Of a stretch of 48,644 nucleotides of DNA, positions 739 through 48,644 are shown one piece after another (position 1 is the first letter of the stretch; every line of letters begins with the position of its first letter). A program made the translations under genes and the position numbers. The stretch comes from Escherichia coli. GTDB taxonomy: Bacteria; Pseudomonadota; Gammaproteobacteria; Enterobacterales; Enterobacteriaceae. The notes under the pieces were generated by a model. The model was given only the letters and a program-made list of their open reading frames with translations, was not told the origin of the DNA and did no database searches. The stretch lies in NCBI RefSeq assembly GCF_016903815.1, contig NZ_CP069971.1. One strand, given 5' to 3'.

Positions 739-855
739 CAGATTTCTCCGGTTTAACCAGGGCGGGTATCGCTCGGTTTCGGGTATAACCTTAGGAAATT
801 TTTTCCCACCTGTAAAGCACTTTTTATATAAATCTATAATTATATATTTATAGAT
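739..855 (-). promoter_or_regulatory. conserved promoter-leader cassette, copy 1 (sigma70-like -35 TTTACA on minus strand, AT-rich palindrome upstream, ~45 nt leader)
   Basis: About 103 bp identical to 10174-10285 and near-identical to 41876-41987; sits immediately upstream of a minus-strand start codon in all three copies. Confidence 0.6.
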
Positions 856-907
856 TTTCGATGTTCCCGATATCTACACACCATCAAAACAGCTCAAAAT
901 GACACTT

Positions 908-3258: not shown

Positions 3259-3274
3259 TTAACGAACTCCAGTT

Positions 3275-3400
3275 AAAACCACGATATGTGGTATTAAAAC
3301 CACATATCGTGAGTTTTTCAATGGGCAAAACAAAAAATAACCTTCTATTTGTGGTCCACCTCTCGTCTTACCATGTGAAAACCACTAAATGTGGTAATGT
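3275..3400. promoter_or_regulatory. divergent promoter/operator region with ACCAC-N5-GTGGT operator sites
   Basis: Cores at 3278-3292 (ACCACGATATGTGGT), 3299-3313 (ACCACATATCGTGAG, the mirror of the first) and 3381-3395 (ACCACTAAATGTGGT), plus a GTGGTCCAC element at 3351-3359. Confidence 0.6.
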
Positions 3401-3432
3401 ATAAATAACCCACCATTCACGATTGATGAGAC

Positions 3433-4089
3433 ATGAAAAGCAACGACGAGAACATCAAGAAAGAAATAGGTCTGCGCATTCAGACTCTACGGAAACAATC
3501 CGGCATGACTGCCGGAGATCTCCAGCAAGTCACTGGAATAGGCTTAAGCACCTTGCAGAACTATGAGGCCGGATTAAGACAACCATCTATACCTGCCATC
3601 AAGAAAATCGCGCACGCCCTGAAAGCATCAGCGCCTTATATCGCGTGCTTAACAGATAACCCGTTCCCACCCCAGAATACTAACGCTCCTGTTATTCCTG
3701 GGCTTGTAGCTATAAAAAATGACATAGCATCGCACGCCGGAGAAAAGCCAGTGCTGGCGATAGAACAGGAGATTCTACGAAGCAAGAACATCAACCCATC
3801 GTCTCTGTCAGTTCTCCAGAGCAACGATGAGTTAATGTCACCAACAATATCCCCTGGCTCCCAAGTCCTGATTGATACAGACGATACAGAGATTCATGAG
3901 GGGATCTATGCCCTTGAAGACAGAAATGGCCTGGTTGTTTTGAGGCACTGTAGAGTCATACCGGGTGACAATGCTGTTATGCTGTCAACCGAAAGGGATG
4001 CTGAAATGAACACTAAGCATCTGAATAACGAGGAATTTAAGCGTTATAAAGTTCTGGGCCGCGTAGTTAGTGTTGTCAACTGGTTATGA
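3433..4089 (+). CDS. CI-like repressor (N-terminal HTH, C-terminal LexA/S24-type autopeptidase domain)
   Basis: 218 aa; HTH GLRIQTLRKQSGMTAGDLQQVTGIGLSTLQNYEAG; C-terminal ...VVLRHCRVIPGDNAVMLSTERD...YKVLGRVVSV resembles S24 peptidase. Confidence 0.75.
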   Translation: MKSNDENIKKEIGLRIQTLRKQSGMTAGDLQQVTGIGLSTLQNYEAGLRQPSIPAIKKIAHALKASAPYIACLTDNPFPPQNTNAPVIPGLVAIKNDIASHAGEKPVLAIEQEILRSKNINPSSLSVLQSNDELMSPTISPGSQVLIDTDDTEIHEGIYALEDRNGLVVLRHCRVIPGDNAVMLSTERDAEMNTKHLNNEEFKRYKVLGRVVSVVNWL

Positions 4090-4131
4090 TACACAGCACG
4101 GCGAAAGCCGTGCATTTCTACGCTCAAAAAA

Positions 4132-4181: not shown

Positions 4182-4556
4182 ATGGAATTACATACAGCCA
4201 ATAAAAACGAAACTCTGATCACTGCTGGAATCGAAATCCAAGCGTTGAACATAGCGATTGAGTGTATGTTATGCCAAATCATTGATAATGAGAAAGATAT
4301 CGACTGGATATCATCTACCCTTCATCTTGCTTACGAGCAAAAAGCCTGCCTCAAAACAGCCTTACAATACGATGTGCCTTCTGTATCAAAGCTGTGCCAG
4401 TCATTGATGGCATATAACAGAGCTATCATTTCTGTATGCCTCATGATTCTCGATGAGAATACCCCTCTTAGCGACCGCTCAGAAGCAGCTCTAACCCTCT
4501 CACGTAAACAGCGACAGCTAGCAAATCAACTGATATCAACGATAGCTGACCTCTGA
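4182..4556 (+). CDS. hypothetical protein (operator-controlled orphan gene)
   Basis: 124 aa ORF with an upstream GAGG RBS; flanked by an operator upstream and a hairpin terminator downstream. Confidence 0.45.
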   Translation: MELHTANKNETLITAGIEIQALNIAIECMLCQIIDNEKDIDWISSTLHLAYEQKACLKTALQYDVPSVSKLCQSLMAYNRAIISVCLMILDENTPLSDRSEAALTLSRKQRQLANQLISTIADL

Positions 4557-4560
4557 CTGC

Positions 4561-4585
4561 AAGCGGGCTAACGCCCGCTTATATG
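4561..4585 (+). terminator. intrinsic terminator hairpin
   Basis: AAGCGGGC-TAAC-GCCCGCTT followed by a T-rich stretch. Confidence 0.5.
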
Positions 4586-4589
4586 ATTA

Positions 4590-4683
4590 TAGATTTATAT
4601 AATTATATAAAACGCTTTTCATCCGCCAAAAAGTTGGTTATGCTTACCTCGTTCTATAAATATAGATTTATAGAATTATATAA
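4590..4683. repeat. two AT-rich composite sites (ATAGATTTATA + TATAATTATATAA) upstream of parA; candidate centromere/operator
   Basis: 4590-4610 ...tagatttatataattatataa and 4661-4683 tatagatttatagaattatataa. Confidence 0.5.
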
Positions 4684-4706
4684 CCAAACACATGGAGTCT
4701 CGACAA

Positions 4707-5360
4707 ATGACTATCTCTGTAGGTATTTTCAACGGAAAAGGCGGCGTAACCAAATCAACAATTGCCCGTGCTTTAGCAGTTGCTTATGCAAAGGCTGGCT
4801 GGAATGTATGCCTGATCGATATGGATGTGCTTAACGGAACGGTAACGCGTTGGGTACAACGCAGAATGGCCAACAATATCGAACCAGCAATCGCGGCGCA
4901 GCCGTGCGGCACACCATCACAAGTCCAGAAAATCATCGAATCAGAAGTATACGACCTGGTTATCGTCGATGGCGGTGCCTACGCATCTGAATCAGTACCG
5001 AAGCTCTCTGAATTTCTGGATATGGTTATTTTGCCAACCAGATTCTCTACCGATGACCTGGAAACCACCGTTAACACAGCTCACGGCATCGTTAAAAAGG
5101 GTGTACCAATCAAGAAAATTTGCATGGTGTTTTCCGGCGCGGCTGAAAACGAAGCTGACTATATTGAAGCCCAAGAGTACCTGGCTAATACGCCATACTT
5201 TGTTGTCGATAAGTACATTCCCCACAAGCCAGCTCTGAGCAAAGCTCAGGATAAGGGCTTAAGCCTTATTGAGTGCTCATACGTTGCGCCACGCAAAAAG
5301 GCAGACGATGTTATCCAGGGGATTATCAATCAGCTTGAGGCTCTGACTACTGCCGCGTAA
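4707..5360 (+). CDS. parA: ParA-family partition ATPase (deviant Walker A)
   Basis: MTISVGIFNGKGGVTKSTIA...CLIDMD; GGAG RBS about 10 nt upstream of the ATG at 4707 (the ORF track starts at an upstream in-frame ATG, 4692). Confidence 0.8.
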   Translation: MTISVGIFNGKGGVTKSTIARALAVAYAKAGWNVCLIDMDVLNGTVTRWVQRRMANNIEPAIAAQPCGTPSQVQKIIESEVYDLVIVDGGAYASESVPKLSEFLDMVILPTRFSTDDLETTVNTAHGIVKKGVPIKKICMVFSGAAENEADYIEAQEYLANTPYFVVDKYIPHKPALSKAQDKGLSLIECSYVAPRKKADDVIQGIINQLEALTTAA

Positions 5361-5391
5361 TATATAATTATAGTTTTATAGATTTATATAA
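5361..5391. repeat. AT-rich palindromic site between parA and the ParG-like gene
   Basis: tatataattatag ttt tatagatttatataa, the same motif family as at 4590-4683. Confidence 0.45.
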
Positions 5392-5403
5392 AAGGGGATA
5401 CAC

Positions 5404-5652
5404 ATGGCCGCACCATCAAAACCACCGAAAAAGAACAGCAAAGGCGTACCGCCATCAATCGAACAACCGCAGGTTTTCGACCCGACTGAAACGCCGACCA
5501 GAACCAAATCAGGTGGGGCACAAATGGCGTTTAACGTCGACCCTGAATTTAAACGCGAGTACAAAACGTTCGCCAGCTCAATGGATATGTCATTGAAAGA
5601 AGTGCTGACAAAATCTTTTGAGTTACTCAAGGCTCAATACAACCAGAAGTAA
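5404..5652 (+). CDS. small partition/centromere-binding protein, ParG-like (predicted ribbon-helix-helix)
   Basis: 82 aa; flexible basic N-terminus and C-terminal MAFNVDPEFKREYKTFASSMDMSLKEVL, RHH-like; immediately downstream of parA. Confidence 0.55.
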   Translation: MAAPSKPPKKNSKGVPPSIEQPQVFDPTETPTRTKSGGAQMAFNVDPEFKREYKTFASSMDMSLKEVLTKSFELLKAQYNQK

Positions 5653-5874: not shown

Positions 5875-5900
5875 AAAAAAGGCCCCCGAAGGGGCCTAAT
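5875..5900 (-). terminator. intrinsic terminator (GGCCCC-CGAA-GGGGCC, T-run on minus strand)
   Basis: Perfect GC hairpin flanked by an A6 run on the plus strand, i.e. T6 on the minus strand; lies between convergent genes. Confidence 0.65.
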
Positions 5901-5902
5901 CG

Positions 5903-6022
5903 CTACTTGCTGCTAATGTTTATCGTCACATTCAGAGCGTTATCAGTAATCTTCCAACCCTCCCCATGTGGCGTAAACAAAGCTCCAGTAACAACGATAA
6001 AAATACACATACAGTATTTTTT
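5903..6022 (-). CDS. small hydrophobic peptide (about 40 aa), function unknown
   Basis: MKKYCMCIFIVVTGALFTPHGEGWKITDNALNVTINISSK with an AGGG RBS, ending at the terminator hairpin. Confidence 0.3.
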   Translation of the reverse strand, partial: KKYCMCIFIVVTGALFTPHGEGWKITDNALNVTINISSK

Positions 6023-6423
6023 CATTGTATGGCCCTTACAGGCCGTTTCACGGCATCCCCACCGACGAAAACAACGCGAGAGCAAGCACGGCTGCTTGTG
6101 CTTGCATGTACGGCAACGGAGAATCCTCCCCTAAAGTCGGTGCCCGGGTGCGAATCGGCGGGAAGGTCCACAGGTATTTTACGATTATTTTAAGATTAGT
6201 TATAGGAAAGAAATTAAACGAAAAAACTCGTTTATTTTCACAAAATCAGTAACCTACCCACAATCTGTGAGTTTGCAGGCACAACAAGAACCACAATTTT
6301 ATGAAGCATAATAGTGGACTATTATTACCTTTTGGGTAAAATTAACTTGCTGCTTGTGCTTGCGTGGTTGTTTATACAACAACGTAATGCTGAAAGGACC
6401 GCGAATCCGATCAGCACGAAAGA

Positions 6424-6483: not shown

Positions 6484-6593
6484 TGTCTCTGTTAAAATCC
6501 CGCCGTATTGACATAAATGCGCCATTGGTGGACACTTTCCTAGCCGTAGCAAAATCTACGGTCGGGATTGGAACCCCGTAGACACAATGGCGC

Positions 6594-6616
6594 ATACCGC
6601 GTTAGCGGTTTTTTTA
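6594..6616 (+). terminator. second terminator-like hairpin in the antirepressor leader
   Basis: ACCGC-GTTA-GCGGT followed by T7. Confidence 0.45.
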
Positions 6617-6781
6617 TGCGTAAAGCACTGCTACACCCAAATTATGGTGGGGCGTGCGGGGGAGTCGTAAGACTCGCCGGTTCGTCATTGTGTCCGGTAG
6701 TTCCAACCCTGCACGTCTCACCACCCAATGATTGGAACCTGACGGTGGTGAGTATCCTTAACCTTTAAGGGAATCATCACA

Positions 6782-6973
6782 ATGACAAACCTACCCCATG
6801 ACTATTACGTCAACCTCGTAAAGATCCTTCTCAAGAAAGCCTCATACGCCGATAAATTCCGCCTGGCTGAAATAATCGAGCGCGAAGCTATGCGCATCGC
6901 CAGCAACGATAACGCTGTTTCTGTCGCAAAAATCTCCCTCGTAACCAAAGTAGTTATGGGAGGTGCAAAATGA
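6782..6973 (+). CDS. small protein translationally coupled to the antirepressor gene
   Basis: 63 aa; its stop overlaps the ATG of the next gene (ATGA overlap at 6970). Confidence 0.45.
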   Translation: MTNLPHDYYVNLVKILLKKASYADKFRLAEIIEREAMRIASNDNAVSVAKISLVTKVVMGGAK

Positions 6974-8151
6974 AAACGCTTCCGACCGTTAACACCCTAC
7001 AGCCTATCCTGCATAACCAGATCCCCGTTATCACTACTGAACTACTGGCGCAATTGTATGGAACCGAGCGCCAACGTCTGACGAACAATTTCAATAGAAA
7101 CAAGGAACGTTTTATAGAAGGTAAACACTTTTTTAGGATAGAAGGTAAAGAGTTACGAGAGTTGAAGAACAAAAACTCTTTAAGAGTTCCTGTGAGAGTA
7201 GTTAACGAACCATCTTTAAGAGGGTTACAAATTCCCCCGAAAGTTCGCTCCCTCATCCTCTGGACAGAACGCGGGGCTGCACGTCACGCCAAAATGCTTG
7301 AAACTAACCAAGCGTGGGATGTGTTCGAACGGCTGGAAGACTGCTATTTCAGCCAGAACGCGCAAACGGCCGCGACCGTAACCGTCTCGCCAAGCAATGC
7401 TCGTGAGGTTGTTGATACGCTCAACGCCAAACCAATGTATTACGTTAAGGTGTGCAATAACGAGCCACTCACAACCTCAGCCGATGTTGCCCAGGCATTC
7501 AGCACCACAAACAATTCCATCGTTATGGCCATCGATGCGTTACGCATTCCTCGCACAGCTGCGGCGCGTCATTTCTTTAAAGAGCAACGACCGTTGGAAG
7601 GAAGCGACCGCGAAATAACAATCTATCGCATGACAAAAGACGGATTTACCTTGCTCATGGAAAGTATCGACGGTCCAAGCGTGAAGGATATCAAGCTGGC
7701 CTACATTGAAGCTTTTAACGCTATCAGCAGCGTGTTAAAGGCAGAATACGAGCGAATACTATACAACCGACTGTATCAGGAAACAAAGATTATCCGAACG
7801 GCAACAGAACATCATCGGCTATTAACGGAACCAAACTACCGCAAGACACTAATCAAAGAGTTTGACAAAGCGACGGAGAAAACTAAAGCGGCACTAAATC
7901 TACCAACAATGACTAAGGATGATGTGATATCAGCCTTACTTCTTGATCTACTCAGAAACGCCAGAGCACTTATAAGCTTTGACGAAAACCTGAATCCTCA
8001 GCTCAAGCTACTACCACCGACAGGCAAAGTAGTCGACCAGGCTGATCACAACAGCATACTCAGCGTTCTGGATGCAAACCTGCCAGCCAGGACACTACAG
8101 GAACTGATAAAAATATCTGCGGATAAACTGGCCGCAGGTGCAAAACCATAA
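6970..8151 (+). CDS. antirepressor-like protein (ORF6N/KilA-type N-terminal domain)
   Basis: 393 aa; N-terminal ...NNFNRNKERFIEGKHFFRIEGKELRELK...LILWTERGAARHAKMLETNQAWDVFERLEDCYF matches the ORF6N-type antirepressor pattern as I recall it. Confidence 0.6.
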   Translation: MKTLPTVNTLQPILHNQIPVITTELLAQLYGTERQRLTNNFNRNKERFIEGKHFFRIEGKELRELKNKNSLRVPVRVVNEPSLRGLQIPPKVRSLILWTERGAARHAKMLETNQAWDVFERLEDCYFSQNAQTAATVTVSPSNAREVVDTLNAKPMYYVKVCNNEPLTTSADVAQAFSTTNNSIVMAIDALRIPRTAAARHFFKEQRPLEGSDREITIYRMTKDGFTLLMESIDGPSVKDIKLAYIEAFNAISSVLKAEYERILYNRLYQETKIIRTATEHHRLLTEPNYRKTLIKEFDKATEKTKAALNLPTMTKDDVISALLLDLLRNARALISFDENLNPQLKLLPPTGKVVDQADHNSILSVLDANLPARTLQELIKISADKLAAGAKP

Positions 8152-9456: not shown

Positions 9457-9729
9457 TCATTTGATCCCTTGTTCCAATTCTGACGACACTTTAACCTTTT
9501 CCCATACAAGGGTTTGCAGCCTTAACAGAATCGCGTCTTTATCAAGGCGTGAAAGATCCTTAACCATATCGTCAAATGACAGAACGCGAATGGCCATCTC
9601 AATGACCCTCGGCGGCTCCCCCTTCTCATATCGCTTATATGTAGCCAACGATATCCCAAATTCTTCGGCGGCTCGCTCCTGCGTCCAGTTCATCCCACGA
9701 CGCCATAATTTCAATTCATAACCCGTCAT
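9457..9729 (-). CDS. XRE-family HTH DNA-binding protein
   Basis: MTGYELKLWRRGMNWTQERAAEEFGISLATYKRYEKGE; GAGGAGG RBS before the ATG at 9729 (the track ORF starts further upstream). Confidence 0.6.
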   Translation of the reverse strand: MTGYELKLWRRGMNWTQERAAEEFGISLATYKRYEKGEPPRVIEMAIRVLSFDDMVKDLSRLDKDAILLRLQTLVWEKVKVSSELEQGIK

Positions 9730-9740
9730 AGCATCCTCCT

Positions 9741-9790
9741 CGCACAATACTAACACTCGCAAAGTGTCAAAATGACACTTTGCGTATTGT
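9741..9790. promoter_or_regulatory. long nested palindrome (GCAAAGTGTCA-TTT-TGACACTTTGC flanked by CACAATAC/GTATTGTG)
   Basis: Perfect 11-bp arms with imperfect outer arms, between the 126-aa gene stop and the HTH gene RBS. Confidence 0.6.
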
Positions 9791-9792
9791 GT

Positions 9793-10173
9793 TTACTTAA
9801 CGAGGAATAAAAATGGTTTATTGTTCGGCGGTGTAATCGGGGCTGGCTCGCTTTTGCTCATGCGATCAGTGTACCAAGCCAACTCCTTGTCAAAGTAAGC
9901 CTGATTAAAATAGGCCATGAATGTAGTTTCAAATCCATAACGACCGCTAATACGCAGCATCTGATTGCCGTTCTCTGTTTCCAGATATACCTGGGCACGT
10001 TCCTGATTCTCCTTCAGCCAGGTTAAAGCCTCATCGCATGAGGACACACGATACTCATCATCGTAGCCGTCATCGATGCGGCTTGAGGAAGAACGGCAAA
10101 TCACGCCAACAGAACCAGCCAGGATAGTTTGAATTTTAAGGAAAGCGTTTTTGCGGATTTTAATCATGCTCAT
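9793..10173 (-). CDS. hypothetical protein (126 aa), first gene downstream of cassette copy 2
   Basis: ORF with a GGAGA RBS supplied by the conserved leader; no family recognised. Confidence 0.5.
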   Translation of the reverse strand: MSMIKIRKNAFLKIQTILAGSVGVICRSSSSRIDDGYDDEYRVSSCDEALTWLKENQERAQVYLETENGNQMLRISGRYGFETTFMAYFNQAYFDKELAWYTDRMSKSEPAPITPPNNKPFLFLVK

Positions 10174-10285
10174 CGGGTTATCTCCGGTTTAACCAGGGCG
10201 GGTATCGCTCGGTTTCGGGTATAACCTTAGGAAATTTTTTCCCACCTGTAAAGCACTTTTTATATAAATCTATAATTATATAAAT
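10174..10285 (-). promoter_or_regulatory. conserved promoter-leader cassette, copy 2
   Basis: Identical to copy 1 over about 103 bp. Confidence 0.6.
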
Positions 10286-11649: not shown

Positions 11650-11940
11650 CTATTTTTGTGACTTTACTCCTGGCATATGGACTTCCCAGCGACGAATCCC
11701 CATAGCTGCGCAAAAATCAGCCACATAATTCAATCCCGCCCATTCGCGGATACCACCACGGGCTTTTTCAATGAAAACGGCAATCCCTTTTTTATTGAGA
11801 GCAAAAAGCCGCCAGCTTTTTGTCACTTCGTCCTGGGTAGCCACAACACAAGTGAAAGCTCCCATGCGATACAGGTCCAAGAACTCTTTGCGTGTTTTGC
11901 GTACAAGTTCCATAACAAACCTCATATTTGCATGTTTCAA
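11650..11940 (-). CDS. hypothetical protein
   Basis: 96 aa ORF overlapping the upstream gene by 4 nt. Confidence 0.4.
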   Translation of the reverse strand: MKHANMRFVMELVRKTRKEFLDLYRMGAFTCVVATQDEVTKSWRLFALNKKGIAVFIEKARGGIREWAGLNYVADFCAAMGIRRWEVHMPGVKSQK

Positions 11941-12236
11941 ACATCTGTTTTGTTATCAATGAAGATTAACCCTAACCCAGCGAAGTAACACAGCAGCGCC
12001 CAGGCTGCATACGGAATGCTGGATCTGGATGTGGACTCCTTTAACATCTGCCAGTTGCGAACATTGCGACTATCTTTTAAGCCAAGTTTTTTGGCCAACT
12101 GCGATCCGCTCATTCCGGTCAGGCCAATGACTGCCCGAACTTCTCCACATGTAGGAGATTCCCATTCATCCGCTTTTTTTAAACAAGCCGGATTCAACAT
12201 TTTTAAAACAGTATCTTTATCCATAACCATCTCCAT
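11937..12236 (-). CDS. hypothetical protein with HTH-like segment
   Basis: 99 aa; ...IGLTGMSGSQLAKKLGLKDSRNVRNW... Confidence 0.4.
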   Translation of the reverse strand: MEMVMDKDTVLKMLNPACLKKADEWESPTCGEVRAVIGLTGMSGSQLAKKLGLKDSRNVRNWQMLKESTSRSSIPYAAWALLCYFAGLGLIFIDNKTDV

Positions 12237-12599
12237 TTATTATATCTACGATGGTAGGAAATCTTTTCCTATGTGGCAATAGAAATTTACTACATTGCGT
12301 ATAAGACAAGTTTTCTATGTCTAATAGGAAATGATGTTTCTTACGTTTTATCGCGTTCTGATGGCTACTGTGTGCGTATTTATCGATGTTTATTGATAAG
12401 GCTCGCCCCTTCCTCCTGCAAAGCCCGGCCGTAGGCCTTATTTCGGCCTTATATAAATTGATTTTGTATAGTTCGAAACGCGCCGTTTCGAAAAGGATGA
12501 TCAGGCTGCTCCATGCCTCCGGCAAGTGCCGGAGGAGGTATATTTGAGCGTAGCGACTCGAACCGGCGCGAGCTTTAGCTCGCTGCAAGGGCGAACATA

Positions 12600-12745
12600 T
12601 TCACAGGCAAAGCCTGCGTAAGTTAAATAAAGAAAGTTTTAATAAAAGAAAGTGATTTTGCATTTATTTGTTTAGTGCATCTATTATAAAAAACCATTTG
12701 CATATACATATCAAAACTGTGGATAACTTTATTATCCGATGCCTG
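12600..12745. other. oriR-like region: AT-rich tract plus inverted DnaA-box pair (TGTGGATAA 12718-12726; TTATCCGAT 12732-12740)
   Basis: Downstream of the repA stop, preceded by a GC-rich multi-hairpin segment (12380-12600). Confidence 0.5.
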
Positions 12746-14055: not shown

Positions 14056-14583
14056 TTATTCTGGTTTGTCTGGCCATTCGGGGTTTGCTGTGTCCACGCG
14101 ACTGACAAGAACACTGTAACGTTCCCAGGCTTCCAGTCGGATACGCTCCTCATCTGTTGCCATGCTCAGCCTGACAGCGCGTTCCAGCGGCCGGATAACT
14201 GATTCAGCTTCGGAAAGTAACGTGGCCTTTTGTGATTCGGCCTGTTGTTGCTGTTCGCCTGCCGTATAAATCCGCTTAATCACGGCACCATCCTTAAACA
14301 TCCATTTACCTGAGTCATCAGCACGTCGGTTGGAGGTAATATCAGGAACCTCAACAACGCTAAAACCTTCAGGATTAAGCGTTGAAGCATCTCTGGTGAT
14401 AGCGACAATAATATTATTTTCATCGTAAACAATCTTTATTGTGTCTGGCTGAAAGTTCTTCACTTCCTCATACCAGTTTTTCCCGTCTTCAGTGTAAAGC
14501 CAGATGACTCCGTGCTTCTTTGTTAACTCATACTGTTCCAGTGTTTTAGCGTTACCCGCTTTTATGTTCTTTAAGTGCATCAT
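14056..14583 (-). CDS. tail fibre assembly protein (Tfa-like)
   Basis: C-terminal ...[27 protein letters not shown], the Tfa signature. Confidence 0.75.
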
Positions 14584-35569: not shown

Positions 35570-36121
35570 TTATTCTTCCTGCTTAATAAATCGGGATTCC
35601 TGGAGCGCCTGAAGCGCAAAATTAATCTCGTCTTCAATAATGCGTTCGATCTCCCTGGCTGTTTTGCCTTCACAACGGGGAGCTGCTCTTGGAGCAATAC
35701 TAAATAAGCGGCTACGCAATTCATTAGCTGCCAGAAATGCATCATCCCTGACCGCATCTTTAGCGATGAGAGAGCCTTCCTTTTCTTCAAATTCAAGGCG
35801 TTTCAGCTTTGCCTGATAAATTTTTTCTGCGGTCTTAGCCTTGTTGAATTGCACCGCAACACCGGAAGTACCACCAGCTAATCCGGCATCATCAGCGGGT
35901 AACTCTGGTTGTTCCGAAGATATCCCATGCCCTCTTTTTCCATTTTCAGCAGATACCTCACGACCAACCTGTCGGCTCGCTTCATAAGCCGCACTGGCTT
36001 TATCAAAATCCAGCTTGCCGCTTTTCAGCACTGGAATGCGACCGGAACGACAGAGCTTCGTAACCATTGCCGGAGAAATACCTTTCCGGCGGGCAAACTC
36101 TGACTTACTGACGATGGCCAT
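35570..36121 (-). CDS. terminase small subunit (Nu1-like)
   Basis: MAIVSKSEFARRKGISPAMVTKLCRSGRIPVL... HTH N-terminus; ATG overlaps the upstream gene stop (TAATG). Confidence 0.7.
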   Translation of the reverse strand: MAIVSKSEFARRKGISPAMVTKLCRSGRIPVLKSGKLDFDKASAAYEASRQVGREVSAENGKRGHGISSEQPELPADDAGLAGGTSGVAVQFNKAKTAEKIYQAKLKRLEFEEKEGSLIAKDAVRDDAFLAANELRSRLFSIAPRAAPRCEGKTAREIERIIEDEINFALQALQESRFIKQEE

Positions 36122-36711
36122 TACTTGCAACCATTGGCAAGATACTGAACAAATCCCTCATGCGTTTCATGCGCGTCGTGGTACTGACGATAAACATCCA
36201 GCAACAATGCAATTTCCATATCCGTCGCGGGAATACGTTCTTTATCAATAGCCAGGTACTTAATTTGAACAACAGGGGAAGAATTATCGTCTTCTTCCTG
36301 CGGCTGTTCATCGCTTAACATTTCGTCAAGCTCTGCATCATTAAACCCAAGCAGATCAATATCAAAATCATCATCCATTAACTCTTTGACTTCTTCGGCC
36401 AGAAGCTGCATATCCCAGCCAGCATTTAAGGCCAGCTTGTTATCTGCAATCCTGTACGCCTTCTTCTGTTTTTCAGAAAGGTTACTCAACCGAATCGCCG
36501 GAACTTTATCCATTTCCAGAATTTCGGCTGCTGCAAGCCGCCCATGCCCCGCAATCAGTTCATTCTTTTCATCGATCAGCACAGGATTAGTGAAACCGAA
36601 CTCACGGATACTGTTCACCAACTGTTCAACTTGCTCATCTGAATGAGTCCGTGAATTTTTGGCATATCTGAGCAGCTTACCGACTGGTAAATATTCGATT
36701 TTTAGAGCCAT
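36121..36711 (-). CDS. ParB-like N-terminal domain (ParB/Srx fold) protein
   Basis: 196 aa; ...LIDEKNELIAGHGRLAAAEIL...; paralog of 39378-40001. Confidence 0.7.
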   Translation of the reverse strand: MALKIEYLPVGKLLRYAKNSRTHSDEQVEQLVNSIREFGFTNPVLIDEKNELIAGHGRLAAAEILEMDKVPAIRLSNLSEKQKKAYRIADNKLALNAGWDMQLLAEEVKELMDDDFDIDLLGFNDAELDEMLSDEQPQEEDDNSSPVVQIKYLAIDKERIPATDMEIALLLDVYRQYHDAHETHEGFVQYLANGCK

Positions 36712-38004: not shown

Positions 38005-39384
38005 CTACTTAATCAACGGCCGGAAAGCCGCCAGCACATCATCAGATCGTCCGATTGTTGAACCACCAGGCAACGGCAACTCAAACTCAAAACGAACAGC
38101 TTTCTCCAGACTCGCCCAACTAAGGGAATCATCGTTAATGACGTGCAAATACCAGCTCTTACAGTTGAATATTGACCGCTTAATCCTGAAACCATGTACA
38201 CGACACAACTGCTTCACTTCCTCATCAGAGTGAAACTTCTGGTAAAACCAGTGCCCCTTCCGGTACAACGCGGTAAAACCGTCATGATCAATAAAATAAA
38301 GCCGGCTTTTGGAACTCGCCGCTTGTGTTTGCTTCAGGACTGTTTCCAGTTCTCCACGGCTACGGCCAGAAAAGAATATTGACCCACCAGCTTTACACAG
38401 GCCTTTCAGAACCGTCAGAACGGACCATTCAGCCTCGACACTATCGACCGAGTTCAAAACGCTATCGCAAATCACGTAGTCGTAACGCCCTCGCGTTTTT
38501 AAGTCGTCCACCAGCGTATCAATCATCCGGTTTGTTGCGGCCCTATCCAGAGTGTTTCCAGCGCCCTTACGGCGGAAAAGCTCGAGATCATGCAGGTTAT
38601 ATCCCTTTGCCCTGAGCATTCGCGCGTAGTCTCCCTGCCCCGAACCAAAATCAATTCCTCTTGGCGTCTTGGCAATGATCGGGAGGATCAACGACTCATA
38701 CAGATTTGATTTCAGGCTGCCACCATTACGCAACCGCATAAGCTGCGCATACGTCTGGATGTATGTTGTTTTCTCCAGATGAGAATACTCAAATACACCA
38801 TAAGTTTTATTCAGATAACTTTGGTATTTTTCCTTCTCAACATCAGGGATCACAAACACCGTTAGCGGTGTGCGCGTCATTTTCGCTGCTAATGCATACT
38901 GAGCACAGTGAATAACCTCACCAGACTGAGTAGCAACACAACCACCCCACGGACCATACTTGATAACCAGTTCCGCTATGTTCTTTCGAACATATGCCAT
39001 TTTCGCGCGCATATTGCCTGAGATCTGGCTTGCCGATACCTGAACAAAACCATGCTTATCTTCCAGACCGGACACCCTGCAACGCTCATCTCCGCTATCA
39101 AAATCCGTTCCGTTATGCAGTTGGTTAAACCGTACTTCGTCGTATACCGTCGTTTCACAGGGCAACACATACACCGCAGCACGCGTTATTCCCAACTTAC
39201 GTAGCGCCTTCGTCCTTTGGTGTCCCGCCACCAGCAAATCGCCGCGCACTATCAATGGCTTCACAAGCCCCAGCTCCCTGACGCTTTCCGCCAGCCTCGC
39301 AAGATCATCCTCACCGATAAAACGCGGGTTATATTCCGCGCCGCGTAGGTGCGTTATGTCGTAATTGAGGTGAAGCATCAGCAC
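38005..39384 (-). CDS. fusion protein: ParB-like N-terminal domain + class-I SAM-dependent methyltransferase-like C-terminal domain
   Basis: N-terminal ...LIVRGDLLVAGHQRTKALRKLG...; C-terminal GIDFGSGQGDYARML, DYVICDSVL, LCKAGGSIFFSG motifs; no DPPY/NPPY motif seen. Confidence 0.65.
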   Translation of the reverse strand: MLMLHLNYDITHLRGAEYNPRFIGEDDLARLAESVRELGLVKPLIVRGDLLVAGHQRTKALRKLGITRAAVYVLPCETTVYDEVRFNQLHNGTDFDSGDERCRVSGLEDKHGFVQVSASQISGNMRAKMAYVRKNIAELVIKYGPWGGCVATQSGEVIHCAQYALAAKMTRTPLTVFVIPDVEKEKYQSYLNKTYGVFEYSHLEKTTYIQTYAQLMRLRNGGSLKSNLYESLILPIIAKTPRGIDFGSGQGDYARMLRAKGYNLHDLELFRRKGAGNTLDRAATNRMIDTLVDDLKTRGRYDYVICDSVLNSVDSVEAEWSVLTVLKGLCKAGGSIFFSGRSRGELETVLKQTQAASSKSRLYFIDHDGFTALYRKGHWFYQKFHSDEEVKQLCRVHGFRIKRSIFNCKSWYLHVINDDSLSWASLEKAVRFEFELPLPGGSTIGRSDDVLAAFRPLIK

Positions 39385-40001
39385 ACCTCCCCAGCCAGCA
39401 ATGCGGATACAAATCCGATATAGCTGCCATTATCATCAACATAACGAGACACCGCGCAGTCAAAACGATCCGCTTCCTCATCCGTTGCCGGGATTTTATG
39501 ACCTCCAAATGACAGGTACTGAACTTTTACGCCTGATTTGGCCTCATCCTTCTCAAATGGGATATCCATACCCTCTGTGTCATCGTAGACTGCCGCACTC
39601 AATAAGTTATCCAGTTCGCGCTGAGTAAAACCAATTGAGTCCAGAGCAAAATCATCGGCCGCAAGATCTGCAAGCTCCGCGCTTAACAACTCTTCATCCC
39701 AACCAGCATTCAGCGGAATACGGTTGTCGGCCAGACGATATGCCTTCTTCTGATTCTCCGTTAGCCCAGCCAGAACAATGCAGGGAACATCATCCATCCC
39801 CAACTGAGTGGCCGCAGCAATTCGACCATGACCAGCAATTACAACGTTGTTCTCGTCTATCAGGATCGGATTAGTCCATCCGTACTCCTGTATGCTGGCA
39901 ACAATCTGATCTACCTGCTCCACGGAGTGTGTGCGAGCGTTCTTTTCATAACCAATCAACACAGAAAGTGGTAAAGAAACCACATTAAGATGTTTTGTCA
40001 T
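39378..40001 (-). CDS. ParB-like N-terminal domain protein (paralog)
   Basis: 207 aa; aligns by eye with 36121-36711 over most of its length. Confidence 0.7.
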   Translation of the reverse strand: MTKHLNVVSLPLSVLIGYEKNARTHSVEQVDQIVASIQEYGWTNPILIDENNVVIAGHGRIAAATQLGMDDVPCIVLAGLTENQKKAYRLADNRIPLNAGWDEELLSAELADLAADDFALDSIGFTQRELDNLLSAAVYDDTEGMDIPFEKDEAKSGVKVQYLSFGGHKIPATDEEADRFDCAVSRYVDDNGSYIGFVSALLAGEVC

Positions 40002-41408: not shown

Positions 41409-41609
41409 TTAATGCTCGCGTCGTCCGGCGACAACTTCGGATTTGTATTTCAGGTCGCCCAGCAAGAATTGCAGTTTAAGCATCTTTGCCGCCGTGTAGT
41501 TTCCTGATTCCACAACCTCTTTCATGAGGTCATAAACGGCCGCAACATCATCAGCCAGGAACTCTTTGCGTTGCTGCTCAGTCGCACGTTTGAAGGAAAT
41601 ACGCATCAC
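41409..41609 (-). CDS. hypothetical small protein
   Basis: 66 aa, coupled to the upstream gene (4-nt overlap). Confidence 0.4.
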   Translation of the reverse strand: MMRISFKRATEQQRKEFLADDVAAVYDLMKEVVESGNYTAAKMLKLQFLLGDLKYKSEVVAGRREH

Positions 41610-41875
41610 TCATCATCTCCTGCCGCACATACAACCTCACAAAAAACATCAGCGGAATGTTTCTTTTTGAATGAATGGCGCTCAAAACCGCACTCAATAT
41701 CAGGCGCAAAAACATCCACCACATACGGTCTTTCAGAATGTTTGTTTTCCCAACGATAAACCGTAGTGACGTTGAAATGTTTTAACGCTTCACGGTACTC
41801 AACGCTGCCCGTCAGGTTTTTTGAGGTCAGGTATTGCAGGAGGTTTTTTACTACTTCACGGTCTTGTACTTTCAT
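41606..41875 (-). CDS. hypothetical protein, first gene downstream of cassette copy 3
   Basis: 89 aa; RBS supplied by the conserved leader. Confidence 0.45.
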   Translation of the reverse strand: MKVQDREVVKNLLQYLTSKNLTGSVEYREALKHFNVTTVYRWENKHSERPYVVDVFAPDIECGFERHSFKKKHSADVFCEVVCAAGDDE

Positions 41876-41987
41876 CGGGTTATCTCCGGTTTAACCAGGG
41901 CGGGTATCGCTCGGTTTCGGGTATAATCATAGGAAATTTTTTCCCACCTGCAAAGCACTTTTTATATAAATATATAATTATATAATT
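41876..41987 (-). promoter_or_regulatory. conserved promoter-leader cassette, copy 3 (four substitutions relative to copies 1 and 2)
   Basis: tatctccggtttaaccagggcgggtatcgctcggtttcgggtataatcataggaaattttttcccacctgcaaagcactttttatataaatatataattatataa. Confidence 0.6.
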
Positions 41988-42575
41988 CTATGCCACTTGC
42001 CAGAGAGCATCATGCAACTGGATACCTCCATTGCACTGGTTGCCCCAGCCATGCCAACCATCAGGTAAATCACCGCGAGCAAACAGCTCAATACGAGGAA
42101 CATCACCTAACAGCCTTACCAGCTTGTCACGAACCACATCAGGCTTCCGAGAATGCTCCAGACGAGGCGATGTAAACGACTGAATGATCCCCGCATCAAG
42201 GCGGGTCGGCAATTTGCCTTTTACCGCAAACAAGCAATCTTCACTGTTTGCACGAGTCATATGCCCCATCCCCATCACCAGCTTATCTGGTTGTCGGCTA
42301 CCACATTTGTTCCATGTGAAGCCCTTCATGGTCATAAGCCTGAATCCCCATGCTTTCACCACCAGCAACGCTTCTTCTGGCTGAGTCGGAACCCACCACA
42401 TGGCCAACAAACACGATTCAGGATTAGCAAGCTGCCAGACAGGAATACGAGCAATATCCTCAGCTTTCATCGTTGGATACTTAAAACCAGCTCCACGATT
42501 CCCATCCTTACACTTATCTTTGTATTCCCAGGGGGGATCTGCATAAATCAGATTAAACAATGCAATTGCCTCCAT
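41988..42575 (-). CDS. MT-A70-family DNA N6-adenine methyltransferase
   Basis: 195 aa; LIYADPPWEY and ...SRKPDVVRDKL... motifs. Confidence 0.75.
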   Translation of the reverse strand: MEAIALFNLIYADPPWEYKDKCKDGNRGAGFKYPTMKAEDIARIPVWQLANPESCLLAMWWVPTQPEEALLVVKAWGFRLMTMKGFTWNKCGSRQPDKLVMGMGHMTRANSEDCLFAVKGKLPTRLDAGIIQSFTSPRLEHSRKPDVVRDKLVRLLGDVPRIELFARGDLPDGWHGWGNQCNGGIQLHDALWQVA

Positions 42576-42883: not shown

Positions 42884-42959
42884 TGGTGGCCCCTACCGGA
42901 TTTGAACCGATGACCGTGCGATTATGAGTCGCCTGCTCTAACCACTGAGCTAAGGGGCC
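42884..42959 (-). tRNA. tRNA with CAU anticodon (Met or Ile2-type)
   Basis: 76 nt; GGCCCCTTAGCTCAGTGGTTAGAGCAGGCGACTCATAATCGCACGGTCATCGGTTCAAATCCGGTAGGGGCCACCA; cloverleaf folds by eye, encoded CCA end. Confidence 0.8.
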
Positions 42960-43100
42960 ATATTTGATCTGTTTGTCTGGTGTGGCGCCGCGCACGAAAA
43001 TCCCAGCCAATAAATTCAGGATTTTTGGGCGCGGCGGCATATCAGACAAACATGGTTGATGCGTGCGCCCATGAGAAAAGCGCATAGAATGTTGTAACTA

Positions 43101-43130
43101 TATATTTATATAATTATAGAAATATATATT
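43101..43130. repeat. AT-rich palindromic site (tatataattatag) upstream of the tRNA
   Basis: Same motif family as at the par locus and the cassettes. Confidence 0.45.
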
Positions 43131-43338
43131 ACTTTCGGCAGTTGATTTCCCATGCCCTGTTATGAGCCAGAATATCTTTCTTTGTCTGGCGGTCCATAAC
43201 ATCGATGTCGTGATCAGTCAGGTAGATGGGCTTTACCCAATCACAGGCGGTATCAACCACCACCGGGACGCTTCCACGACTCCCGCAGCTCGCGATCAAC
43301 ATCGTCATCAGCCATATGGTTAACACTCTGCTGTACAT
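43129..43338 (-). CDS. o-spanin-like lipoprotein (Rz1-like)
   Basis: 69 aa; lipobox-like LIASCGS; overlaps the 3' end of the i-spanin-like gene in another frame. Confidence 0.5.
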   Translation of the reverse strand: MYSRVLTIWLMTMLIASCGSRGSVPVVVDTACDWVKPIYLTDHDIDVMDRQTKKDILAHNRAWEINCRK

Positions 43339-47595: not shown

Positions 47596-47961
47596 TCACT
47601 TCAACTCCTCCCGACGACGTTCCTGAAGCTCTAGCATTGCGGCTCGGAAATCCTGCCACCACTCCTCATCTGCAACGGGGGTGTTCCGCTCCAGCACCTT
47701 GTCCGCATCTGCGATCAGATTTGCCAGACTCTTGTCTGAAATCTTCGTTACCGGAGTCGTTGGTTGCTCAACCTGCCCGATAGGTTTTATCGTGCTCAAA
47801 AGGAGGCGACGGCTGGAAAGTGGCGACCCACAACGGCGCCCATCTTCCTTGCGATATGTTTCTTTCGGACCAACACACCAAGTTGTCGGCGTTTCGCGTA
47901 ACTTCACTTTTTTCTCACCATCAATGGTGATGATTATTCCGGTATGGGTTTTGATGCTCAT
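47596..47961 (-). CDS. hypothetical protein
   Basis: 121 aa ORF. Confidence 0.4.
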   Translation of the reverse strand: MSIKTHTGIIITIDGEKKVKLRETPTTWCVGPKETYRKEDGRRCGSPLSSRRLLLSTIKPIGQVEQPTTPVTKISDKSLANLIADADKVLERNTPVADEEWWQDFRAAMLELQERRREELK

Positions 47962-48260
47962 GCCACAGCCCCTCTCAACGGCTTAACTTTGGCTAATAAG
48001 GTGTTAAACAACATGGAGTTAGGGTTCATGCCAAATGGCAATTCCGGTTTAGCGGAGTAGTACAGGCAACCATTTATTTTCCTGGTTGTTATCTGTCCTT
48101 CGGCAACCATGCTTCTCAGTCTGCAACGCATAGAGTTCTGCGACACACCAATGTGCTCCGCGATTACGTCCACTTTTGAACATGGGTGATCGGTCAGGAA
48201 ATTAATCACATCTTGGGGGTTAATAATTTTGCGTTTCATTGTCGAGGCGTCCTTATACAT
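47958..48260 (-). CDS. putative winged-helix DNA-binding protein (PapI/FaeA-like)
   Basis: ...INFLTDHPCSKVDVIAEHIGVSQNSMRCRLRSMVAEGQITTRK... Confidence 0.4.
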   Translation of the reverse strand: MYKDASTMKRKIINPQDVINFLTDHPCSKVDVIAEHIGVSQNSMRCRLRSMVAEGQITTRKINGCLYYSAKPELPFGMNPNSMLFNTLLAKVKPLRGAVA

Positions 48261-48261
48261 T

Positions 48262-48285
48262 TATATAAATATATAATTCTATATA
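48262..48285. repeat. AT-rich palindromic site (tatataaatatataattctatata)
   Basis: Same motif family as the other seven copies. Confidence 0.45.
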
Positions 48286-48306
48286 CGGCGGGAGACATCC
48301 CGCCGT
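48285..48306. terminator. hairpin ACGGCGGGA-GACA-TCCCGCCGT
   Basis: Perfect 9-bp stem between two minus-strand genes; no clear T-run. Confidence 0.4.
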
Positions 48307-48316
48307 AGGCTTACTG

Positions 48317-48644
48317 TCAGGCTTTCAATAGCGATTCTTTCAGATATCGGGCATCAGCCAGGGCATTTGGAGTAATTTTGCGAATCCATGCATTACGGGT
48401 TGGACTCCACTTAAAGGCGCGTGATTTAAGCAGCGAACGAATGTTTGCCTCTGGTTTGCCAGGGAAATAAAACAGGATGCGGTTATCCTCTGGATCTATC
48501 TCCATAGAAAAGTCGTCGTATTCTTCGCGCTGTGCTCCTGTTACAGACTTGACCGATTCAAGCTCCTTAATACGGCTCTGTAGTCGTTTGATCTCGGCGT
48601 TATTGTTGCTCAGTACGTATGAAGGGAATCCGATGCGCCCAGAA
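48317..48644 (-). CDS. hypothetical protein, 5' end beyond the window
   Basis: The reading frame stays open from 48505 to the window end. Confidence 0.4.
   Translation of the reverse strand, partial: SGRIGFPSYVLSNNNAEIKRLQSRIKELESVKSVTGAQREEYDDFSMEIDPEDNRILFYFPGKPEANIRSLLKSRAFKWSPTRNAWIRKITPNALADARYLKESLLKA

Follow-up and report, generated by a model that had tools for sequence, protein, structure and literature searches.

Phage-plasmids must choose between plasmid-like inheritance and lytic growth, and we know of nothing on how this lysis-lysogeny decision is wired in most of their families besides P1 and N15. In phage P1, many scattered lytic promoters are held off by means of a repeated C1 operator, while KorB of RK2 and SopB of N15, which is also a phage-plasmid, are helix-turn-helix (HTH) ParB proteins of type Ia partition systems whose palindromic sites are scattered near the promoters of other functions, thus linking segregation to gene control. 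Among partition proteins of the ribbon-helix-helix (RHH) fold, omega of pSM19035 has repeat arrays overlapping three promoters, namely copS, delta and omega (PMC9499535), and ParG of TP228 binds tetramer boxes spaced 4 bp apart, which function both as operator and as centromere (PMC3130281). AcrIF24, in turn, has an HTH domain that represses its own promoter (PMC9001735). Here we describe three near-identical control modules of ~112-115 nt, hereafter cassettes, all on the minus strand of an Escherichia coli phage-plasmid (NZ_CP069971.1; the whole stretch analysed, 48,644 nucleotides, is referred to as the window). Each cassette is probably a complete control module, made of a repeat array, a sigma-70 promoter, a palindrome and a structured leader, and the three would act as co-repressed promoters of three operons of the phage-plasmid. 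The module is a new variation on the theme of omega, KorB and N15 SopB, with its parts predicted by computation.

The three cassettes end at the ATG codons 738-736, 10173-10171 and 41875-41873, in agreement with an earlier reading of the bare letters (the sequence-only reading), which had placed there three minus-strand copies, each ending at a start codon. When aligned with MAFFT, the first two copies show no difference along ~104 columns that extend from the AT-rich array to GGAGA, and copy 3 departs from them at four positions of this span, both as previously noticed: the array has one difference, the -35 one (TTTGCA for TTTACA) and the -10 two (TATGAT for TAAGGT). A repeat search listed them as a family with three copies of 114 nt at 92-100% identity, and a 24-nt core of the leader occurs three times versus no occurrence in 100 shuffles. 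What had been described as an upstream AT-rich palindrome turned out to be an array of TATA boxes with an 8-bp period, whereas a true palindrome, TAGGA-N7-TCCTA, absent from that description, is found in the promoter spacer. The parts of cassette 1, from upstream to downstream, and of the other two cassettes are the following:

822-856, minus strand: cassette 1 array, immediately preceding the -35 and made of at least four TATA boxes with an 8-bp period; putative site of the RHH partition protein.
811-816, minus strand: cassette 1 -35, TTTACA, kept in relatives.
794-810, minus strand: cassette 1 spacer, 17 nt.
792-808, no strand assigned: putative palindromic operator of cassette 1, TGGGA-N7-TCCTA (TAGGA-N7-TCCTA in relatives), filling the 17-nt spacer and overlapping the TA of the -10.
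788-793, minus strand: cassette 1 -10, TAAGGT.
7-8 nt after the -10, minus strand: variable stretch of cassette 1, with lineage-specific sequence.
745-780, minus strand: invariant leader of cassette 1, GAAACCGAGCGATA-NN-CGCCCTGGTTAAACCGGAGA.
755-778, minus strand: hairpin of the 5' untranslated region (UTR) of cassette 1, AACCG-A-GCG-AUACC-CGC-CC-UGGUU, beginning 2-3 nt past the predicted transcription start.
739-754, minus strand: ribosome-binding region of cassette 1, AAACCGGAGAAATCTG, with the Shine-Dalgarno (SD) sequence GGAG at 746-749, before the ATG 738-736 of the DUF3560 gene.
10174-10285, minus strand: cassette 2, with array 10258-10285 (three boxes), -35 10247-10252 and palindrome 10228-10244.
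Within 10174-10285, minus strand: 3' parts of cassette 2, with -10 10224-10229, hairpin 10191-10214 and SD 10182-10185.
41876-41993, minus strand: cassette 3, with array 41960-41993, -35 TTTGCA 41949-41954 and palindrome 41930-41946.
Within 41876-41993, minus strand: 3' parts of cassette 3, with -10 TATGAT 41926-41931, hairpin 41893-41916 and SD 41884-41887.

Each cassette leads into a different operon. Downstream of cassette 1 lies the DUF3560 gene, whose operon runs towards the holin, endolysin and spanin genes; cassette 2 precedes a small operon with a gene for a 126-aa protein (9793-10173) and an HTH gene (9457-9762); cassette 3 precedes gene 41606-41875 and other small genes, followed by ParB-like, methylase and terminase genes and by the virion block. 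The three operons had been taken as made of uncharacterised genes, which is correct only in part, cassette 3 heading the packaging and virion block and the operon of cassette 1 extending towards lysis. Two of the three operons carry or lead into lytic-cycle (lysis or virion) genes.

The near-identity of the copies had been attributed either to strong constraint or to recent duplication, and comparison of E. coli with the Salmonella, Klebsiella aerogenes and Citrobacter lineages speaks for the former. The 112-nt cassette is 83-88% identical between E. coli and the others. For the initial 300 nt of the gene downstream the value is 70-74% in six comparisons out of seven (54% in the remaining one), and for the upstream flank 48-69%, close to 50% ahead of cassettes 1 and 2. 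The proteins encoded behind cassette 2 drop to 58-69% identity, and the cassette ahead of them is nearly unchanged. Recent duplication alone is excluded, because conservation of the module between lineages exceeds that of the adjacent coding DNA. Where substitutions occur, they fall in places that a working module can tolerate: in the -10 they affect positions 3-5, in the palindrome its three central bases and in the hairpin two bases of the loop, and others lie between the -10 and the predicted start and in the spacer between SD and ATG. Copies within one genome share lineage-specific substitutions, that is, they evolve in concert: the three Salmonella copies are mutually identical and differ from those of E. 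coli at ~10 positions, and each of two metagenomic genomes has its own spacer variant in every copy. Moreover, two SD-ATG spacer variants precede different genes in different genomes, thus indicating gene conversion. The cassettes represent a clean natural case of concerted evolution in regulatory DNA.

The interpretation of the element as a promoter-leader cassette is supported by the behaviour of its -35 and -10 positions, which is that of a sigma-70 promoter, although the promoter itself is a predicted one. TTTACA and TAAGGT are separated by 17 nt, within the 16-18 bp required, and A2 and T6 of the -10 are conserved; the -35 TTTACA agrees with the consensus at five of six positions and the spacer has the optimal length. 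Across relatives the -10 is found as TAAGGT, TATGGT, TATGAT, TAATGT, TAGTGT or TAGTAT, with T1, A2 and T6 always kept (TAnnnT). Invariance of the leader sequence starts at the predicted +1.

A shared regulator site had also been proposed, and two classes of shared putative protein-binding sites, the arrays and the palindrome, support this proposal. Scanning for four TATA boxes in 8-bp phase gave 16 matches, versus 0.1 in locally shuffled sequence. Array sites amount to eight, including the three-box array of cassette 2, and none is within annotated genes: besides the three cassettes, they are located on both sides of the parA promoter, between the parA and RHH genes, at 43090-43137 and at 48245-48284. 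The partition genes and the arrays outside the cassettes are listed below:

4579-4691, plus strand: parA promoter region, with array 4579-4610, -35 TTTTCA 4616-4621, -10 TATGCT 4639-4644 and second array 4652-4691.
4692-5360, plus strand: small ParA-type partition ATPase, likely start at 4707.
5360-5399, plus strand: array between the parA and RHH genes, from the phased-TATA scan.
5404-5652, plus strand: 82-aa RHH protein with a disordered N-terminal tail, directly downstream of parA; putative array binder.
43090-43137, no strand assigned: dispersed array without promoter core, between the spanin genes and tRNA-Met.
48245-48284, no strand assigned: dispersed array that follows a hairpin and immediately precedes the SD of the MarR-like gene 47958-48260.

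The geometry of the parA promoter is that of the cassettes, with array, A-run, GYGC, TTTnCA, 17 nt and TAnGnT in this order. ParA matches PHROG 164 (E 2e-39), its score with NCBIfam ParA_partition being under the cut-off. No Pfam match was obtained for the 82-aa protein itself, members of its family matching RHH_10 and one of them Pfam ParG (PF09274) at E 0.022; its AlphaFold (AF2) model shows a disordered tail followed by helices 47-59 and 64-80, and the top Foldseek matches listed for it are nearly all RHH domains (PutA, CopG, CdbA, Arc). A small ParA followed by a small RHH protein, with short-repeat arrays upstream of the par operon, is the arrangement of type Ib partition systems (ParF/ParG or delta/omega type), to which the window conforms.

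The link between arrays and partition protein comes from the relatives. Homologues of the RHH protein (38-48% identity) always directly follow a ParA gene, and their parA promoters, in five lineages, are flanked by two arrays of 8-bp period with a lineage-specific box that varies with the RHH sequence: TATA in the window, TAYATA in L155, CTTTA in L157 and L159, AGCGA in L156 and TTAAAT/AAAGA-type boxes in Serratia and Pantoea. In the distant phage-plasmid relative L159, the position of cassette 1 retains the promoter core TTTACA-GGTAGGAAAGAATTTCC-TAGTAT, preceded by an array of L159's own CTTTA-type boxes; thus, the array tracks the partition protein and not the promoter. Likewise, the three cassettes of Serratia bear boxes of the Serratia par type. 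Putative partition-protein sites are therefore found directly upstream of the -35 at three promoters outside the par operon, covarying with the par arrays in L159 and Serratia, as in systems of the omega or KorB type. An RHH family whose box changes alongside the protein (TATA, TAYATA, CTTTA, AGCGA) should also be useful for studies of RHH specificity.

Compared with omega of pSM19035, the window has in common a small RHH centromere-binding protein beside a small ParA and contiguous short-repeat arrays at several promoters (PMC9499535, PMC4627068), and here too one protein would serve both partition and global control of transcription. On the contrary, the boxes are TATA with an 8-bp period instead of the 7-bp WATCACW heptads of omega, the host is an enterobacterium, in two of the three units the putatively controlled genes include lytic-cycle ones instead of copy-control or toxin-antitoxin genes, and the promoters add a second putative operator and a structured leader. 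With ParG of TP228 and its parH and OF sites the window shares the RHH fold, the flexible N-terminal tail, a ParF-like small ATPase as partner and tetramer boxes 4 bp apart, i.e., an 8-bp period, upstream of the par operon (PMC3130281). The box, however, is TATA and not ACTC, similarity to ParG is not significant (E 0.38), and the arrays are dispersed over eight sites, unlike those of TP228, which are upstream of parFG (PMC3130281). The 82-aa protein would thus resemble ParG in its mode of action, although by sequence it does not belong to that family. The difference with KorB and SopB is in the protein, an RHH member of a type Ib-like system that putatively binds repeat arrays.

Some minor observations regard the arrays. 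Unrelated conjugative plasmids of 24-28 kb with a homologous ParA-RHH pair also bear dispersed arrays; in the 24-kb MOBC/MPF_T plasmid NZ_CP075703.1, TATA-type arrays are present at 3389-3426, 4080-4113, 12631-12664 and 14400-14437, two of the four sitting between type IV secretion genes, which suggests an additional action of the RHH protein of these plasmids on the transfer operon. In several lineages, parA and genes directly after an array share another conserved region of translation start, GGAG(N)CTCGACAATG (window 4692-4709 and 48240-48262; the parA start of L161; L163 at ~6500). At 4555-4610 and 48245-48300 of the window a GC-rich hairpin without a U-run is immediately followed by an array, a pairing that recurs upstream of parA in L155, L161 and L162. 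A tRNA-Met gene (42884-42959, minus strand) is just downstream of array 43090-43137.

The second class of sites is the palindrome, which fills the promoter spacer and covers the first bases of the -10. Allowing one mismatch, TAGGA-N7-TCCTA occurs at four sites each in the window, the Salmonella plasmid and the Serratia contig, a number reached by 1 of 100 shuffles in the first two and by 0 of 100 in the third. Its arms are kept across relatives and its centre varies. The fourth site of the window directs attention to a candidate binding protein:

12251-12279, minus strand: fourth promoter with the palindrome, TTGCCA 12274-12279, 17 nt with TAGGAAAAGATTTCCTA (12255-12271) and TACCAT 12251-12256; no array and no hairpin.
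11937-12236, minus strand: 99-aa HTH protein (phrog_8351) with similarity to Aca3 and to the HTH domain at the C-terminus of AcrIF24; candidate autorepressor and candidate palindrome binder.

In a phmmer search of the PDB the 99-aa protein matched the AcrIF24 HTH at E 1.5e-5 and Aca3 at E 0.017. As is typical of Aca genes, an inverted repeat (TAGGAAAAGATTTCCTA) is found at its own promoter, between TTGCCA and TACCAT and 15 nt upstream of its ATG, and the same holds for Serratia and Salmonella. In Serratia the phrog_8351 gene is at the same place, with 34% identity at protein level, and a different palindrome, AGGACT-AAA-AGTCCT, is common to its promoter and to the Serratia cassettes, so that the arms of the palindrome covary between the HTH gene promoter and the cassettes. 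On position and homology, we propose the 99-aa protein as the palindrome-binding repressor. With the Aca autorepressors (the AcrIF24 C-terminal domain and Aca3) it shares an inverted repeat at its own promoter that overlaps core elements, as in acr-aca operons (PMC9001735, PMC9638941). It differs from them in that no anti-CRISPR gene was identified beside the HTH gene, the downstream 96-aa gene being phrog_4595 with no known function, and in that the same putative operator is also present at three further promoters of unrelated operons, because of which the protein would head a regulon and not a single autoregulated operon.

Two other proteins were considered as regulators of the cassettes and rejected. 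The CI-like repressor has operators of the type ACCAC-N5-GTGGT, which are not in the cassettes; three or four AAAACCAC-N5-GTGGT sites at 3270-3400, between the CI-like gene and the divergent early operon, are likely CI operators. The window is similar to P1 in bearing an immI-like C4 RNA and ant region, and unlike P1 in that the CI-like operators are seen only at 3270-3400. The 124-aa protein encoded between cI and parA is acidic-looking, with few basic residues when inspected by eye, and had no database match.

The leader is the remaining part of the module. A structured 5' UTR had been put forward as a possible constraint, with RNA folding and covariance analysis as the means to verify it; when eight leaders from three lineages were folded, all showed the same shape as minimum-free-energy structure, in which an outer stem of 4-5 pairs is separated by a one-base bulge from an inner stem of 3-4 pairs; the loop starts with AU, and a two-base bulge follows. 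This shape is maintained by compensatory changes in the three lineages. In a structural alignment, five of eight pairs change on both sides, and the proportion of canonical pairs is 92% in register, dropping to 17-46% if the 3' partner is shifted by one or two bases. All three lineages have G-U pairs on the sense strand only, and an RNA structure is therefore favoured over a DNA palindrome. The loop is found as AUACC, AUAGU, AUGAU or AUUU.

A three-copy module is also present in the Serratia contig (L161; 5127-5240, 11983-12096 and 13712-13825), with the same architecture in a different sequence: after a Serratia-type array come the -35 (TTGATG, TTGCAT or TTGCGG), the Serratia palindrome, the -10 (TAATGT or TAATAT) and a hairpin with a different stem sequence, followed by the ribosome-binding region AAACCGGAGATAACCCGATG, which is that of E. 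coli copies 2 and 3.

Taken together, these observations prompt for the following model. What the sequences show directly is the anatomy of the cassettes, its conservation and concerted evolution, the covariation of array boxes with the partition module and of palindrome arms with the HTH gene promoter, and the compensatory changes of the hairpin; beyond this, we infer that the cassettes are transcribed, that each of the two classes of sites is paired with the protein named above and that the effect of binding is repression. Dimers of the RHH partition protein (5404-5652) would coat the TATA arrays, as at the parA promoter, and a dimeric HTH repressor, for which the 99-aa Aca-like protein (11937-12236) is the best candidate, would bind TAGGA-N7-TCCTA. 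In the plasmid (lysogenic) state both proteins would hold the three operons off together, with the CI-like repressor governing a separate early operon through different operators. Once a transcript is made, its conserved hairpin and invariant ribosome-binding region may set mRNA stability and translation, or may be read by a further factor. Gene conversion, together with selection for being recognised by shared factors, would keep the copies alike. For one family of phage-plasmids, the module suggests a compact answer to how lysogeny is wired, in which three operons, the lysis and virion blocks among them, would be tied by one repeated unit both to a second small repressor and to the partition protein. 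We advance only tentatively, as a possibility with rather less in its favour, the broader view that the RHH partition protein and the Aca-like HTH protein globally repress the lytic and virion operons, that segregation is thereby part of the lysis-lysogeny switch and that a phage factor reads the hairpin as a novel RNA element acting in cis, in a widespread and unstudied family of enterobacterial phage-plasmids.

Several results weigh against co-repressed complete modules and have to be considered along with the other explanations. The -10 of copies 1 and 2 agrees with the consensus at three of six positions, under the four-of-six rule of the scan, and a simple promoter scan calls copy 3 only, which means that an activator may be needed. 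The cassettes could thus be activator-dependent middle or late promoters, with the palindrome or the array as the site of an activator, and not of a plasmid-state repressor, that is produced once induction has occurred; the virion block lies behind cassette 3, late operons are often activator-dependent, and for omega of pSM19035 a switch between activator and repressor modes is known (PMC4627068). However, a palindrome in the spacer overlapping the -10 is in the typical position of a repressor site, the -35 is good, the spacer is optimal, and the closest solved relatives of the candidate HTH protein are autorepressors (PMC9001735), and we regard activation as quite unlikely. On the protein side, the 99-aa HTH candidate had no significant Pfam match, its assignment being founded on position and one PDB similarity, and no significant ParG match was found for the RHH protein, a profile of its 55 homologues giving 1p94 at E 0.38 when run against the PDB. 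Furthermore, the full module is not universal, Pantoea L162 and L163 having dispersed arrays with no recognisable promoter core within 10 kb of par. Arrays of this kind also occur in the window without a promoter core (43090-43137, 48245-48284 and between parA and the RHH gene), and they are functional centromeres in TP228 and pSM19035 (PMC3130281, PMC9499535); the cassette arrays might accordingly be extra centromere sites only, as for the dispersed centromeres of N15, with no regulation of promoters and with a position that reflects the available non-coding space. We judge this to be about as improbable as activation, given that the distance from array to -35 matches that of the autoregulated parA promoter in three lineages with different boxes, within the shared layout of array, A-run, GYGC (E. 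coli) or TGC (L159) and TTTnCA. Operator and centromere roles are in any case compatible, since the promoter arrays of TP228 and pSM19035 serve as both. Far less credible than either is that the copies are neutral remnants of duplication, or homogenised by recombination only, with no specific function: the near-identity within a genome and the visible conversion tracts agree with it, but the module is better conserved between lineages than adjacent coding DNA, substitutions fall at tolerant -10 positions, at the palindrome centre and in the hairpin loop, Serratia retains the architecture with a different sequence, and the hairpin shows compensatory changes.

As to the hairpin, it is weak on its own in E. 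coli (z -1.1 to -1.8), and its covariation comes from three lineages in a structural alignment made by hand, both points against a structured leader. We favour for it a role in mRNA stabilisation and uniform translation, and the main alternative is recognition by an antiterminator or another RNA-binding factor. In its more specific form, this alternative makes the hairpin a loading site, similar to nut or boxB, for a processive antiterminator or RNA-binding regulator that would allow readthrough of internal terminators in the long operons. One hairpin lies just downstream of each promoter of a multi-gene operon, its stem sequence varies among lineages with shape and first two loop bases (AU) kept, and terminator-like hairpins are present inside the operon of cassette 1 (48284-48300). 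Nevertheless, the leaders contain neither a CGCTCTTA-like boxA nor a GNRA-like pentaloop, both of which nut sites of the lambda type would have, no N-like or Q-like protein was identified in this analysis, and Rfam gave nothing in the cassettes at gathering score and, at E<=10, a single match at chance level (13.9 bits versus a gathering score of 48.5). On these grounds a loading site seems unlikely, if somewhat less so than activation or a purely centromeric role. The hairpin is not an intrinsic terminator or attenuator either, being followed by AAACCGGAG, and a terminator scan of the leaders was empty. The C4 and isrK RNAs were evaluated as regulators of the leader and rejected, without special complementarity to it: their duplex energies with the leader (-24 to -32 kcal/mol) equal the background mean of random windows, and the leader lacks the loop motifs that form pairs within the ant region. 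The preferred interpretation of the cassettes remains that of co-repressed promoters with a structured leader.

Regarding the element as a whole, the window is a complete, circularly permuted genome of 48.6 kb. The DUF3560 gene starting at 738 exits the left end and resumes from the right end (1-738 and 48315-48644, minus strand), and since it spans both ends the window corresponds to one full turn of a circular phage-plasmid. It encodes myovirus head, tail and lysis genes, an IncFII-type RepA, a small ParA followed by the 82-aa protein, a CI-like repressor and a HigBA-like toxin-antitoxin pair, for which higB2 is the name in a Yersinia phage record and a RelE/ParE toxin with an HTH antitoxin is the equivalent in the Salmonella plasmid. 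A P1 immI-like region (6543-8151, plus strand) includes an isrK-like RNA (6543-6615), whose segment carries sequences complementary to the C4 loops, a C4 antisense RNA (6640-6728), an ORF of 63 aa and an antirepressor of 393 aa. The ryfA RNA family is matched over its full length at 5875-6171 (minus strand; 142 bits, E 1e-36), a segment lying between the C4 region and the partition genes that may be a stability element similar to type I toxin-antitoxin systems. Upstream of terminase, the genes 36121-36711, 38005-39384 and 39378-40001 (minus strand) have ParB/Srx-like N-terminal domains, in one case fused to a 459-aa methyltransferase-like protein.

Our literature search retrieved no paper on this phage-plasmid or on its relatives, the Yersinia phages vB_YpM_39/41/44, which are 97-98% identical to the window over the 12 kb compared. 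At 95-100% identity, cassette 1 is present, usually with three copies, in ~70 E. coli, E. albertii and E. fergusonii plasmids with a length of 46-52 kb. Among these, the 48-kb plasmid of E. coli ATCC 25922 (NZ_CP009073) has three cassettes, with cassette 1 100% identical over the 131 nt compared, and as ATCC 25922 is a standard strain for quality control the family is easy to work with. Scans of viral contigs returned close relatives only, and a scan of genome contigs with the promoter core gave one match, at chance level. The pSLy3 phage-plasmid group was rejected as the home of the element, pSLy3 belonging to the SSU5 supergroup of ~100 kb. A 32-kb plasmid, NZ_CP024829.1, is a deletion derivative of the phage-plasmid that has lost cassettes 1 and 3 together with cI, par and the lysis genes and retains repA and the virion genes; its deletion end points are not at cassettes, and recombination between cassettes was rejected as the origin of the smaller plasmids. 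Finally, a cfr-carrying conjugative plasmid (NZ_CP037908.1, 1444-1490) contains a fragment of cassette 2, with array and -35, truncated by IS26 and adjoining homologues of the window's 94-aa gene and HigBA pair. This 47-nt match was considered as a mobile array-plus-(-35) unit, which was rejected in favour of an IS26-cut fragment of cassette 2 imported with its neighbouring genes.

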